From Candidatus Hermodarchaeota archaeon (lineage in GTDB: Archaea > Asgardarchaeota > Hermodarchaeia > Hermodarchaeales > Hermodarchaeaceae), in NCBI GenBank assembly GCA_016839805.1, contig JAEOTO010000031.1, positions 96,001 through 160,000 of the forward strand: a DNA stretch of 64,000 nt, read 5' to 3'. Shown in pieces: positions 27,064-31,304 of the stretch. The notes beneath the pieces were generated by a model that did not search any database, was not told the origin of the DNA, and saw only the letters and a program-made list of their open reading frames with translations. Every line of letters begins with the position of its first letter. Within the stretch, counting starts at the first letter, position 1. The position numbers and the translations under genes are program-made.

Positions 27064-28680
27064 TTAGTTTTTCTTTTGGAGAGTGATCTCTATTTCGCTT
27101 ATTCCTCCCCATTTAGATTTTTTTCCTGTGGGGTAGTAAGTATCAATTTGTATAGCTTCTTCGTCCATTGTAAGATCGGGTTCATATTTAGTTCTCAGGA
27201 GTTCAGCAACATCCACAGCGCGGTAAATCAGTCGACCTCGGGCCTTAATTGTTACTGATTGATTTTTCTTTATTTGACTAATGCACGCCCAAACGTAGTC
27301 CATCAATCGTTTTTTCCCAACGAATATGACGTCTTTCAACCAAAATCGTTCGAGGAGTTGCTGATCACGAAGAGCTTCTTCTGTAGGAGTGGGTACTTTT
27401 TCTGAGACAGCCTTTGTGACAAGAGTTGGTTTTTCCTCTGGAAAAGGTTCTTGTGTTGGTATAGGGACTTTTCGTTCGATCTTTTCGATTCTAGGTAATG
27501 TTGAAAATCCAAGAATTTGTGGACTTACCATTTCCCCAATATCCATTGGAACAGCTTCATCTTCTTCTTGTTCGGGAATTGAAGGCGGCTTTTCAGGTTC
27601 TTTACTTTGGTATACATCGAGTTTCTTAATTTCTTGCTCAAGAGCTTCTAAAGTGAAGCGTTTCCTGGGCTGCCAACTGTCGATACGCTCAAGAATGGCT
27701 TGAATTAAATCTGGATTCTTTGTGAAAATTCCTGCCTCATCCCTAGAATTCCAACTCTCGGTTGTAAGATTTTGCGAGGAGATAATTGCTGCCTCTTTAT
27801 CGACAATTAGACAATTTGCATGTAAATTAGGACAAGATTCGATAAGTATCCGATTGGACAATAACATTTCAAGCGCTTCAGGATCTGATTGTTCATTCAC
27901 CCAGTGTTGCCAATCAACCCAAGTAATAAAACGAGCTTGAACTTCATCAGAGATTGTTTGTAAAATGACTTCCGCAACATCATTTGTAATATAGGGAGAT
28001 ACTAATAACACGAATTGCCGAGCGGAAGATAACAGGTCTATGACTAAATCATTTAGACCATTCGAGGTATTGATGAAGACACTTTTGCTATTTCGGGGTA
28101 AAACGGAGGAAAGAGAATACCTTTGTTTATCTTGAGGATAATCTGAATATTCATCAGTAAATGCCAGAAAATACGCCCTTGCCTCCTTCACGAGCTTTCT
28201 TTGCTTTGATACGATTACAAGATCACGGAGAGTTTTTAGATCCCTTGTTATGAAATTTGCTGAACCCACCGCAACTGCTTTCTCTGTTAACATCAATTTG
28301 AAATGAATCCTGGGTCGATTGGCAATCTCAACCTCTAAATTCTGAACTCCGGAAATACCTTTAACCTGCTCAGCATCTATTTTGCTTCCGAGAATTATCC
28401 GAAATCGAAGGTAGTCAGCAGCGTCATTAAGAAGGGCTGATACTAGCTTTTTCTCGATACGGGGAAAGGCGAGCCACAAATCTTTTTCTGCTAAGTCAAC
28501 CATTGAAGAATACTCAGGTCCAATAGCGTGCTCTGCTAAATATACCAGGGATTTTCGTTCCAACTCCTCAGGAACAGAAAGTATCATTTGTATAAATGGA
28601 ATGATTTCCTCCTTGAACTCCATAAATATCATGAGAATTACAGAACCAATGATTAGCGTCATGAAGATCGCGGGAAACAT
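27064..28680 (-). CDS. Tandem phospholipase D-like (HKD) nuclease domains fused to a C-terminal Alba domain
   Basis: IHFKLMLTE...GSANF; SARQFVLLVSPYIT; LHANCLIVD...SSQNLT....DEAGI; C-terminal IFVGKK.LMDYV..VTIKARGR.I.RAVDVAE...IS.IEI.L (Alba). Confidence 0.82.
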   Translation of the reverse strand: MFPAIFMTLIIGSVILMIFMEFKEEIIPFIQMILSVPEELERKSLVYLAEHAIGPEYSSMVDLAEKDLWLAFPRIEKKLVSALLNDAADYLRFRIILGSKIDAEQVKGISGVQNLEVEIANRPRIHFKLMLTEKAVAVGSANFITRDLKTLRDLVIVSKQRKLVKEARAYFLAFTDEYSDYPQDKQRYSLSSVLPRNSKSVFINTSNGLNDLVIDLLSSARQFVLLVSPYITNDVAEVILQTISDEVQARFITWVDWQHWVNEQSDPEALEMLLSNRILIESCPNLHANCLIVDKEAAIISSQNLTTESWNSRDEAGIFTKNPDLIQAILERIDSWQPRKRFTLEALEQEIKKLDVYQSKEPEKPPSIPEQEEDEAVPMDIGEMVSPQILGFSTLPRIEKIERKVPIPTQEPFPEEKPTLVTKAVSEKVPTPTEEALRDQQLLERFWLKDVIFVGKKRLMDYVWACISQIKKNQSVTIKARGRLIYRAVDVAELLRTKYEPDLTMDEEAIQIDTYYPTGKKSKWGGISEIEITLQKKN

Positions 28681-28830
28681 ATTTCGTAAGGTCTCCCAGT
28701 GGCTGGAAATTCAGACCCCATAAGGAAACATGTCATTTATTTATTTTTGGCAAAAATGTGACATTTGACCCACTTTTTCACTTCTTTCCATTTTTTGCTG
28801 TTTTTCGGAAAAAACGCCCAATGTCTTGCA

Positions 28831-30543
28831 TCATTCTTGGCGGAGGTAAGAATGGGCTGACCATCGAATGAGTATGAGGAGTAGCCCGAGAGTGTAAGGT
28901 ACAACAAGGAGAGAGCTAAGAAGCATAAACCCTACTCCTGCGGGAAGAAAGCCCGATTGAAAAATTAGGACAGGCATAATGGCAATCCATGACAGGATTG
29001 GGTAAGTGATCATGAGTGCGACAGGAATTTCATTTTTGGCTCGGCTACTGTGTGGATACCGACTACCAAGTGAAATCCCTATGGCTGTTGATATGAGAAT
29101 GGCGTGGGGGAGAATCGCAATGGCAACCGGGAATAGTTCCAGACTCCCTAAAACGACAGCAACGTAGATGGCAAACGGGATTGCAAGAAAAATGGGCGTA
29201 ACGAGAAGTTGAAGATATTTAGAAAAAGTAAACCAAAAAGGTGACAGTTCTGATAACCGGAGAAGATACAAAGTCCCACGTTCACCTTGGAACGGATCCG
29301 AGGCGTTGATCGCAAGAAGTGGAATAATTATAACGAGTAACAAAGCATACAACGTTTCCATTACAGGTAGAAACGAGGGAGGTAACGGAACCACGATATT
29401 CAAAGTGGGAAGCAAACTCGTCAAAGTCAATGCAGCGATGATATTTACAACAATTCCAAAAAGGTAGAACAGTTTCCCGGGTTTTCGCAACCCTGTGATG
29501 AGATCCTTTTTGAACACAGAACGCAAGGGGCTCTTGGCCTGTTCAAACGTGATGGGCAGTCCACTTAATGCTCCACGAGCAGTTCCACGGTGGCGCGTAA
29601 TGGCAGCAATTTCCTCATACATGTCAACAGTAATTCTATTAGTTAACCATCGTGTGATTAGCAGTATCAACAAATAAGCAATAAATAACCCTAAAAATAG
29701 CCAGGGAAGTGCAGGGACATGAAGGTAAGTGAAAGGTTCTATTGGGCCCCACCATGCAGGCAACAATCCCCTTAAAGGGAGACCACTAAATGCCAGAGCA
29801 ACGAATAAGTAAGCAAGATTGTACATCGGTGAAGGAATGACTATTCCACTCACCACCCAAAAAGGAGATATTATTAGGATAATACCAATTACCAAGACTA
29901 CATAAAACACAATCCGGTATATTCGTCGATAAGGTCGGGATTGTGATACAAATTTCCGTAATGCATACAAACCTTGGGCAGCGACAGCGCCAATCTCTGC
30001 AAGTAAAAAGCCAAGCAGAATCATGAGGGCGATAAAGGCAATGGATAACCCATAATCACGCATAAAGAACCAGACGATAGGTTGAATGGCTACAAATATG
30101 TAGATAAAGAAAATCAACCTACGAGAGATAGATCGCAAGTATTTAGCTGTATAAAATACCTGACCAGGCATGGGTGCGGGAAAAAGAAAATCAGCATCAG
30201 CTGATTCTGATTCTGAACCTAAAGGAACCCCAAGAATTGCTTTAACTATTTGTTGGGCAACTAGAAGGGTGAGAATTGCATAGATGAACCATATAGCTGA
30301 AGGTCCGATGATTCCAGTTTCTCTAGTGAGTAGATATAATGCGTTGCGAAGTTCATATGACAGTCCATAAGGGTCGAGCATCAAAAACCATAGGAGCCAC
30401 ATAATGAGTAGGACAATGACTACTGAGATGATTTGTACTGTAATATAAATGGGACGTGAAATCAAGGTACGAAAATGATTCCAGACACGTCGATACTCCC
30501 ACCGAGTGACTATATAAGTGCTAACGGATTCCATGACCCTCAT
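28831..30543 (-). CDS. ABC exporter permease
   Basis: About 12 TM helices; ADADFLF.APM and ERG..LLR motifs; overlaps the stop of the adjacent ATPase gene. Confidence 0.8.
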   Translation of the reverse strand: MRVMESVSTYIVTRWEYRRVWNHFRTLISRPIYITVQIISVVIVLLIMWLLWFLMLDPYGLSYELRNALYLLTRETGIIGPSAIWFIYAILTLLVAQQIVKAILGVPLGSESESADADFLFPAPMPGQVFYTAKYLRSISRRLIFFIYIFVAIQPIVWFFMRDYGLSIAFIALMILLGFLLAEIGAVAAQGLYALRKFVSQSRPYRRIYRIVFYVVLVIGIILIISPFWVVSGIVIPSPMYNLAYLFVALAFSGLPLRGLLPAWWGPIEPFTYLHVPALPWLFLGLFIAYLLILLITRWLTNRITVDMYEEIAAITRHRGTARGALSGLPITFEQAKSPLRSVFKKDLITGLRKPGKLFYLFGIVVNIIAALTLTSLLPTLNIVVPLPPSFLPVMETLYALLLVIIIPLLAINASDPFQGERGTLYLLRLSELSPFWFTFSKYLQLLVTPIFLAIPFAIYVAVVLGSLELFPVAIAILPHAILISTAIGISLGSRYPHSSRAKNEIPVALMITYPILSWIAIMPVLIFQSGFLPAGVGFMLLSSLLVVPYTLGLLLILIRWSAHSYLRQE

Positions 30544-31304
30544 TTCCCCCGAAGTGTCTTGATATAGTATTTTTCTAAGTTAGCGCGACCTCCGATTTCA
30601 GTGCGGAGCTCTTCAACGGAACCGGCTGCCACCTTCACGCCTTCTGAAATAATGGTAAATTCATCACTAACCTCTTCTGCCACACTTAGATTATGAGTCG
30701 ATAATAGAATGGTGCTCCCATTTTGTGCAAGTTCACGGAAAACCTGTTTGAGCACAAATCCACCTTCTGGGTCGAGTCCATAGATTGGTTCATCCATCAA
30801 CAGGACTTTGGGGTTGCGTATCAGGAGAGCACATAGAAGGGTTCGTTGGAGCATTCCCCGAGAAAGATCGCCAAGGTACTTATTCAAGTATCCTAAGATG
30901 TCGAATCGTGTGACATAATGTTGTTTTCGTTTTTTAAACAAATCTCGAGGTACTTGGTAAAGGCTTCCAATGAAATGAAGAAACTCGTCGACTCGGAGAG
31001 CATCATAAGCAGTGGGCGTGTCAGGAAGAAATCCAAGTTGGGCTTTTGCTTGGCTGGATTCACGGAGCATATCATGCCCCATTATGAAGATAGATCCTCG
31101 GTTAGGTCGACTCAAACCAGCAAGTAAGCGAAGTGTTGTAGTTTTCCCAGCTCCATTGGGCCCAACGAGGGCGTGCACTTTTCCTTGCTCGATTTTAAGA
31201 TTAAGCCGATTTACAGCCAGAACTCCAGGGGGGAAAATTTTGCTCAACTTGAAAGTTTCAATCGCAGGTGTGTCTAGCTCGGAATCGTTTTTAGTTCTTG
31301 GCAT
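30540..31304 (-). CDS. ABC transporter ATP-binding protein
   Basis: GPNGAGKTT, LSRGM, LLMDEP..GLDP, STH. Confidence 0.95.
   Translation of the reverse strand: MPRTKNDSELDTPAIETFKLSKIFPPGVLAVNRLNLKIEQGKVHALVGPNGAGKTTTLRLLAGLSRPNRGSIFIMGHDMLRESSQAKAQLGFLPDTPTAYDALRVDEFLHFIGSLYQVPRDLFKKRKQHYVTRFDILGYLNKYLGDLSRGMLQRTLLCALLIRNPKVLLMDEPIYGLDPEGGFVLKQVFRELAQNGSTILLSTHNLSVAEEVSDEFTIISEGVKVAAGSVEELRTEIGGRANLEKYYIKTLRGK

Follow-up and report, generated by a model that had tools for sequence, protein, structure and literature searches.

The stretch of DNA considered here, called the window throughout, comprises 64,000 nucleotides (nt) from a Candidatus Hermodarchaeota archaeon (GenBank assembly GCA_016839805.1, contig JAEOTO010000031.1, positions 96,001 to 160,000 of the forward strand). 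At 27064..28680 on its minus strand lies one uninterrupted open reading frame (ORF) of 538 amino acids (aa) and a stop codon, the product of which combines a hydrophobic N-terminal segment, a tandem phospholipase D (PLD) fold, a disordered linker and an Alba domain (Table 1). At every locus examined, this gene sits between a permease of 550-570 aa, which belongs to no Pfam family and follows an ABC ATPase, and an aromatic/histidine ammonia-lyase of 617-621 aa. The protein represents a new domain architecture of known parts, limited to one Asgard genus, and the pattern of change in its PLD module points to a former nuclease that selection has retained for something other than canonical catalysis.

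A search of 5.8 billion proteins recovered 22 further clusters (502-559 aa, 45-78% identity, 95-100% coverage), all of which carry PLDc_2 plus Alba and occupy the same chromosomal position; together with the window protein's own cluster, they make up the 23 members to which the orthologue counts below refer. Their database names are generic, e.g., 'phospholipase D-like domain-containing protein [Promethearchaeota archaeon]' or 'DNA-binding protein Alba'. The clusters derive from NCBI, JGI, ENA and Logan assemblies, with contigs of up to 213 kb, and since the identical fusion recurs in independent assemblies from these four sources, it is no assembly artefact. Thus, the doubt raised in the initial annotation of this DNA, namely that the fusion could be a chimera, is settled in favour of a real fusion, and the elements which that annotation had listed (a hydrophobic N-terminus, two variant PLD motifs, an acidic proline-rich linker and Alba) are all in place. 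Its hesitation between start codons at 28680 and 28587 can likewise be ended. The ATG at 28680 is the earliest start in the open frame, which reaches just 10 codons farther upstream. The hydrophobic N-terminus is present in all orthologues and, in the five database entries that start at a later Met, is still encoded in the DNA upstream of that Met; on account of this conservation, the start is placed at 28680, and the alternative at 28587 (Met32), which lies downstream of the conserved hydrophobic helix, is rejected.

Table 1. Features of the fusion gene and its neighbours in the window. dN, non-synonymous divergence; pI, isoelectric point; pLDDT, predicted local distance difference test; BRE, B recognition element.
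Feature	Residues	Position	Strand	Basis
Complete ORF: membrane anchor (putative), tandem PLD fold, linker and Alba		27064..28680	-	Pfam; 22 full-length orthologue clusters
Putative single-pass membrane anchor: hydrophobic helix (about 2-21) and second helix	1-34	28579..28680	-	Hydropathy, model, conservation
PLD lobe 1, the less constrained lobe	42-185	28126..28557	-	PLDc_2 stretch; dN 0.42-0.73
HKD-like motif 1, R-P-R-I-H-F-K...E...G-S-A-N	122-142	28255..28317	-	Family alignment
PLD lobe 2, highly conserved, acidic (pI about 5)	196-360	27601..28095	-	PLDc_2 213-334; dN 0.21-0.32
Degenerate HKD motif 2, N-L-H-A-N...D...S-S-Q-N-L-T	285-306	27763..27828	-	Family alignment; Pfam PLDc
Disordered acidic Pro-rich linker	364-446	27343..27591	-	pLDDT <50; net charge -7
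Short linker motif E..SPxLLGF, nearly invariant	383-392	27505..27534	-	Family alignment
Complete Alba domain (GKKR, IKARGR, AVDVAE, KWGGIS), basic, most constrained part	447-538	27067..27342	-	Pfam; structure matches; dN
Conserved GAATTTCCAG motif, -23 to -32 from ATG, near expected transcription start		28703..28712	-	All seven aligned loci
A/T-rich BRE/TATA-like element, about 55-70 nt before ATG		28734..28750	-	7 orthologous upstream regions aligned
Predicted surface protein, 1697 aa		19928..25021	+	
Histidine/aromatic ammonia-lyase, 621 aa		25080..26945	-	Pfam Lyase_aromatic in two stretches
Multi-pass permease, 570 aa, without Pfam family		28831..30543	-	
ABC ATPase		30540..31304	-	

The C-terminal domain matches the Pfam Alba family (PF01918) at residues 451-503 (E 4.4e-13; 49.2 bits against a cut-off of 25), and the family profile aligns with solved Alba structures over about 88 residues, i.e., over the whole domain, at E values from 5e-16 (1nfh) to 1e-9. 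In an AlphaFold2 monomer model built on the alignment of the 23 orthologues (mean pLDDT 70.7), residues 451-536 adopt a beta-alpha-beta-alpha-beta-beta fold. A complete Alba domain, as the initial annotation had proposed, is therefore present. This domain is basic in every orthologue (pI 9.3-10.1) and has the KWGGIS loop as a family-specific feature, while its scores fall below the NCBIfam equivalog cut-offs (67.1 vs 88.25 bits for TIGR00285; 66.6 vs 90 bits for PRK04015). Given the conserved basic residues of GKK/KARG and the high pI, the fused domain probably binds DNA and/or RNA; Alba proteins bind nucleic acid without sequence specificity.

The genome also carries a separate stand-alone Alba of 150 aa, to which the fused domain is 44% identical, and it is 33-34% identical to the Alba of P0024 and P0028, two distant relatives taken up below. 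The stand-alone gene lies outside the window (L004 1423..1875 on the minus strand, i.e., C21:198936-199388 on its own contig), and its product opens with an N-terminal tail of ~57 residues rich in Lys, Ala, Glu and Pro, with KAEKPK-like repeats, followed by a canonical Alba; to judge from open frames of 137-165 aa in sister genomes, the tail seems to be conserved. As the genome has this stand-alone protein, the fusion may co-assemble with host Alba, as the initial annotation had envisaged.

Dimerization of the fused domain was modelled with two copies of residues 443-538 and the family alignment, in three runs and with three controls. The median ipSAE interface score was 0.60 (runs 0.60, 0.62 and 0.60) against 0.00 for the best control, and thus passed a mark that, among solved proteins, 20 of 30 homo-pairs and 1 of 23 single chains attain; contacts agreed to 100% between the runs, with a partner pLDDT of 81-82. 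The modelled interface (residues 482-493, 507-514 and 528-532) corresponds to helix alpha2 and the beta3/beta4 face and coincides with family-invariant residues. The dimer face may hence have been retained in the fused Alba, although the pass may also reflect likeness to solved Alba dimers.

At the opposite end of the protein, the first 19-20 residues are uncharged, with a mean Kyte-Doolittle hydropathy of 2.46 over 19 residues, and the model places helices at 3-21 and 23-34. Conserved in all members, this hydrophobic helix upholds the membrane anchor that had been suggested as possible in the initial annotation. A positively charged n-region is absent from the segment, which disfavours a Sec signal peptide and argues for the bulk of the protein being cytoplasmic; a single-pass anchor with cytoplasmic topology is the arrangement to which these features point. 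Between the PLD module and Alba, the model is disordered at residues 364-449 (pLDDT below 50). This linker of ~85 aa, with 13 Pro and 14 Glu, is acidic in most orthologues, and within its short motif, P387, L390 and F392 are invariant.

The central module matches Pfam PLDc_2 in two stretches (E 3.8e-23, above the gathering cut-off), with additional weak DpdK/NucT matches at residues 115-171 of lobe 1. In the model, it forms a bilobed alpha/beta module at residues 45-360, with the two lobes packed as the intra-chain pseudo-dimer of the PLD superfamily fold. Its structural neighbours (model range 43-360) include the bacterial PLD 7e0m (VIA Z 27.6, 3.1 A over 303 residues), vaccinia F13 (27.0), PLD3 (26.6) and PssA (26.1), the last three over about 290-310 residues at ~3.0-3.1 A, and Foldseek gives an E value of 2.6e-16 for the module. 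Thus, the fold itself is that of the superfamily, and what sets the protein apart lies in its motifs.

The role of the HKD residues is known from mutagenesis of Nuc and PLD. As stated in PMC10690185, the superfamily cleaves phosphodiesters through a phosphohistidine intermediate by means of HxKxxxxD/E motifs. In the window protein, motif 1 reads H126-F-K128-x4-E133-x6-S-A-N142, with Glu for Asp, and motif 2 reads H287-A-N289-x4-D294-x6-S-S-Q-N304; against the Pfam PLDc active-site model, the score of 17.7 bits stays under the cut-off of 21.9. Across the orthologue alignment, the Lys position of motif 2 (N289) is Asn in all 23 members, and a complete HKD pair was found in none of them. The remaining positions vary: H126 is kept in 20 of the 23 (Asn, Gln or Arg in three) and K128 in 18 (Asn in five), the Asp position of motif 1 (E133) is Glu in 13, Gly in seven and Asp in three, and H287 is kept in 13 (Glu in four, Tyr in two, Asn in two, and Cys and Met in one each), so that neither catalytic His is conserved throughout the family. 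When these changes are placed on a tree, with two distant relatives as its root, the Lys-to-Asn substitution in motif 2 proves older than the whole family, H287 has undergone at least six state changes, and H126 has disappeared in three independent events, one of them in the closest orthologue (78% identity; Asn at H126). The initial annotation had taken the K-to-N change for the mark of an attenuated or asymmetric site. The change is indeed real, but mere attenuation does not describe it: with H287 lost in 10 of the 23 members and H126 lost three times, it is better seen as the beginning of a more extensive erosion.

Around the former active site, R122, R124, N289, D294, S302 and Q303 are invariant in the family alignment, as are the N-T-S-N-G-L strand at 204-209 and the S-D-P-E-A-x-E segment at 265-271. 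Since synonymous divergence (dS) exceeds 1.5 and is thus saturated in every available pair, only the rank order of dN is usable; dN lies far under the saturated dS and rises from Alba (0.06-0.36) through lobe 2 (0.21-0.32) and lobe 1 (0.42-0.73) to the linker (0.33-1.10), with the anchor at 0.24-0.53. As the HKD residues vary while the protein stays constrained, the function kept by selection across the family cannot be canonical HKD catalysis, and the window protein itself, to judge from its sequence, probably lacks catalysis as well. An ORF intact in 23 clusters, low dN, invariant residues and conserved promoter-like elements upstream of the start can all be read as signs that the protein is still functional. 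The GAATTTCCAG motif among these elements is translated in some database entries as an N-terminal extension ('EFPA.G'); in the window, it is out of frame.

When 400 genomes of the phylum were searched with a profile, full-length matches were confined to the window's own genus; the other hits were stand-alone Alba genes, except in one genome of another family (G309), which has an intact-HKD relative without Alba. Among the 15 species genomes of the genus, the gene is intact in six (G000, G106, G095, G103, G102, G101), truncated where the contig ends, but in its usual syntenic place, in two (G098, G093) and cleanly absent in three (G104, G100, G105), in which the permease and lyase lie 35-55 nt apart; from two more, the fragmented G096 and G097, the locus was not recovered. 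Remnants are found in G099 (L034:4663-5126, minus strand), where Alba residues 447-538 are recognizable at 43% identity with several in-frame stops, and in G094 (L033:4492-4765, minus strand), where just the stop-ridden Alba residues 502-538 are left; both record a deletion of the PLD part followed by decay. In the sister genus, the permease and lyase are adjacent without the fusion gene in G107, with an 80-nt gap, and are separated in G108 by a different ORF of 275 aa on the opposite strand. The absences and remnants within the genus thus mark the gene as accessory and repeatedly lost, and it is best described as a lineage-specific accessory of one Asgard (Promethearchaeota-type) genus.

Gene order is conserved well beyond the permease and lyase. 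An operon link to the ABC transporter or to the hut gene was considered and is not supported, the fusion gene having its own promoter-like elements and the permease and lyase being adjacent without it in sister species; nothing seen at the examined loci ties the gene functionally to the transporter or to histidine catabolism, and no defence genes stand beside the gene at its fixed chromosomal position. As regards the neighbours themselves, the ammonia-lyase probably contains an insertion of roughly 90-100 residues, since its first Pfam stretch stops near residue 276 (profile position 260 of 466), and its orthologues are of equal length (617-623 aa). The permease gene overlaps the ABC ATPase gene by 4 nt, and this pair, along with an upstream membrane protein of 134-164 aa, is conserved across the genus and the sister genus. 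Farther along the window, the predicted surface protein has about eight tandem repeats of ~95 residues, a Big_7 match and a C-terminal membrane anchor followed by RRRRKK; a counterpart of 1896 aa occupies the same position in L002 and L003.

Outside the family, 1.84 billion cluster representatives were searched exhaustively with HMMER, and about a dozen proteins proved to have the whole tandem-PLD module in common with it, at 22-31% identity. In the five relatives examined (P0024, P0025, P0028, P0029 and P0030), both full HxKxxxxD motifs are intact, as holds for distant relatives with 24-28% identity over the PLD module, and several relatives match RE_NgoFVII. P0024 and P0028 end in Alba, whereas the other relatives carry a different C-terminal domain. 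P0024 has at its N-terminus a weak match to a TrmB-type winged helix-turn-helix (wHTH), and its metagenomic locus (L013:1023-11093) includes a TraG-like coupling protein, an N6/N4 DNA methyltransferase, HerA(DUF87)-NurA and a DpdA-like transglycosylase, a neighbourhood suggestive of a conjugative element with an island for DNA modification or defence; P0028 adjoins a PAPS-reductase-family gene and P0029 a Prim-Pol gene. A word-index search seeded with P0024 returned no sequence beyond P0024, and a search of the ESM Atlas by features and shape returned generic tandem-PLD clusters only, with no PLD-Alba cluster among them. In a tree of 91 Alba columns, the fusion family forms a long branch of its own, which favours neither the host Alba nor a P0024-type fused ancestor as the source of the domain. 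The likeliest history is one in which a mobile-element or defence-type HKD nuclease with a DNA-binding domain was captured, after which a membrane helix replaced its N-terminus and its active site was inactivated.

These patterns suggest a nucleic-acid binder that is dimeric, tethered to the membrane and dispensable, and that derives, with its pseudo-PLD module, from an HKD nuclease, a reading that we regard as evenly poised between right and wrong. The N-terminal helix would insert in the cytoplasmic membrane and leave the bulk of the protein in the cytoplasm, and the PLD module, in view of its erosion around a conserved pocket, would serve as a non-catalytic scaffold or a phosphate- or ligand-binding unit. 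The flexible acidic linker of ~85 residues would carry the basic Alba, which, by analogy with its family and in keeping with its conservation and the dimer model, would dimerize by the canonical face and bind DNA or RNA without sequence specificity. Overall, an Alba dimer would be kept at the membrane on a long tether. A more specific version, which we put forward tentatively and would sooner doubt than accept, sees a dedicated tether, in which two transmembrane anchors, together with the pseudo-PLD scaffold, would keep dimeric Alba at the cytoplasmic face of the membrane, where it would capture chromosomal DNA or RNA, be it for chromosome anchoring, localised RNA handling or the sequestering of foreign DNA, the whole having been domesticated from a mobile-element HKD-Alba nuclease by inactivation of the catalytic site.

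Several observations weigh against such a binder. The clade of 12 to which the window protein belongs keeps H287 in 12 of 12, K128 in 12 of 12 and H126 in 11 of 12 members, and residual or altered catalysis may accordingly persist there. Lobe 2 is acidic, with a pI of about 5, so that the PLD module offers no obvious nucleic-acid-binding surface. Furthermore, at least 5 of the 15 species of the genus are without the gene or keep it in decayed form, which makes its function dispensable, and it could be heading to loss.

The first of these points leads to the strongest alternative, a working HKD nuclease, perhaps attenuated or asymmetric, which would act at least in the window's clade, with the anchor localising it and Alba directing it to DNA or RNA; the initial annotation had proposed a nuclease of this kind for defence or RNA processing. 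Besides both histidines and K128, the clade has the GSAN and SSQN elements, the nearest sequence families (DrmC, DpdK, NucT and MkoB) are nuclease-type PLDs, and the intact-HKD relatives adjoin genes for TraG, DNA methyltransferase, HerA-NurA, DpdA and Prim-Pol. Membrane-anchored PLD nucleases also exist, PLD3 being described in PMC10783504 as a type II transmembrane 5' exonuclease. Set against this, the Lys of motif 2 is Asn in every member, with no complete HKD pair, and the mechanism of the superfamily, as presented in PMC10690185, runs through the phosphohistidine of HxKxxxxD/E. The closest orthologue has Asn at H126 and ten others are without H287, with the rest of the protein still constrained; the scores for DrmC, DpdK and NucT lie far below curated cut-offs, and the gene has a fixed position between a transporter and a histidine ammonia-lyase rather than in a defence island. 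A nuclease is therefore unlikely, and the earlier proposal of one in defence or RNA processing is not supported.

TrmB-type regulators combine a DNA-binding domain with a non-catalytic PLD-like sensor. By analogy, the remodelled pocket, with its invariant Arg, Asn, Ser and Gln, might bind a phosphorylated ligand or lipid head group and gate Alba, possibly by way of masking by the linker. The invariance of the pocket residues despite the loss of the catalytic His is in keeping with this, as is the adjacency of the acidic linker to the basic Alba; distant relatives show weak matches to the TrmB wHTH, Regulator_TrmB or FilR1 beside the same PLD module (P0024, P0027), and tandem-PLD clusters of the ESM Atlas often co-hit Regulator_TrmB. 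In the window protein, however, Regulator_TrmB goes unmatched at E up to 1, there is no ligand to name, the lack of sequence specificity of Alba suits a gene-specific regulator poorly, and the neighbours reflect broad conservation of gene order and not a regulon, all of which make a ligand sensor improbable.

A lipid-directed enzyme or binder of the PLD family, similar to cardiolipin or phosphatidylserine synthases or to F13 and with Alba in a secondary role, could draw on the membrane anchor and on structural neighbours such as bacterial phospholipase D, F13 and PssA (Z 26-27.6). Those values, however, are tied with the nucleases PLD3/PLD4 and so reflect only the shared tandem fold, the sequence matches point to nuclease-type families, the loss of catalytic residues argues against transphosphatidylation, and Alba is the most conserved part of the protein; we consider a lipid-directed role very improbable. 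Least credible is a functionless, decaying relic of a captured mobile-element nuclease, for even though the catalytic residues have eroded progressively and the genus has three clean absences and two stop-ridden remnants, ORFs of 500-560 aa are intact across 23 clusters diverged to 45% identity, Alba and lobe 2 show strong conservation, numerous invariant positions and a dN far below saturated dS, and the promoter-like elements are conserved.

In evolutionary terms, the family would provide a clear natural case of a nuclease fold becoming a pseudo-enzyme, in which Lys-to-Asn was fixed first and independent losses of both histidines came later, with the rest of the protein under constraint. Alba and the PLD fold are each well known singly, while their combination with a membrane anchor is undescribed in the searched literature, and among 5.8 billion proteins, the architecture amounts to just 23 unnamed or generically named clusters. 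Alba-type chromatin proteins have been reported to be largely absent from the Loki and Hod groups of Asgard archaea (2026 preprint, 10.64898/2026.07.02.735847). Should the membrane-tethered Alba prove true, the archaeal group closest to eukaryotes would offer an example of a simple prokaryotic means to keep DNA or RNA at a membrane. The general importance of the family is nevertheless limited by the one-genus range and the repeated loss.

Among known systems, the best sequence-level neighbours of both PLD lobes are DrmC, DpdK, NucT and MkoB, with weak PADLOC matches. The window protein reaches 30.9 bits against a cut-off of 133 for DrmC of DISARM and has an ABC ATPase, a permease and a histidine ammonia-lyase as neighbours; for DpdK, it reaches 25.1 against 100 bits, with no dpd gene beside it in the window, and for NucT, its score is far below the curated cut-off. 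All four of these families are single-lobed, whereas the window protein is a tandem with eroded catalytic Lys and His and with an anchor and Alba in addition; on sequence grounds, it should not be filed under DrmC, DpdK or NucT. Zucchini/MitoPLD, in which a single HKD lobe homodimerises to complete the active site, shares the anchor, but the window protein has two lobes per chain and a degenerate motif. TrmB membership likewise finds no basis, as neither PF01978 nor PF11495 matches the window protein at E up to 1.

A parallel might be struck with PLD3/PLD4, in which an N-terminal anchor is also followed by an intra-chain two-lobe pseudo-dimer (Z 26-26.6; PMC10783504, PMC10690185). These, however, are eukaryotic luminal glycoproteins that keep both HxKxxxxD/E motifs. 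The window protein, at 11-14% identity to them, has an HxN motif 2, a His that varies within the family and a C-terminal Alba. Vaccinia F13 offers a second parallel, as a tandem PLD fold with a non-canonical HKD motif at a membrane (Z 27.0 over 290 residues; 15% identity), but it lacks a domain for binding nucleic acid, and its role lies in the wrapping of the viral envelope. Its membrane attachment is by lipid modification and not by a transmembrane helix.

In its design, with DNA binding assigned to a domain apart from the PLD-fold nuclease module, the protein resembles the BfiI and NgoFVII/NgoAVII type of enzyme. A literature search for Alba together with PLD, HKD or phospholipase D found no paper on such a fusion, and with nothing more than generic database names attached to it, the initial impression that this was not a described architecture stands. 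The same PLD-linker-Alba order is seen in P0024 and P0028, which differ in keeping both HKD motifs, in having no membrane helix and in their mobile or defence-like contexts. With the archaeal Alba proteins (Sso10b/Alba1, AF1956), the fused domain shares its full extent, the GKK/KARG/AVDVAE motifs, its basic character and the predicted canonical dimer face; it differs from them in being the C-terminal domain of a 538-aa protein, in scoring below the equivalog cut-offs (67 vs 88 bits) and in forming a long-branched clade of its own.

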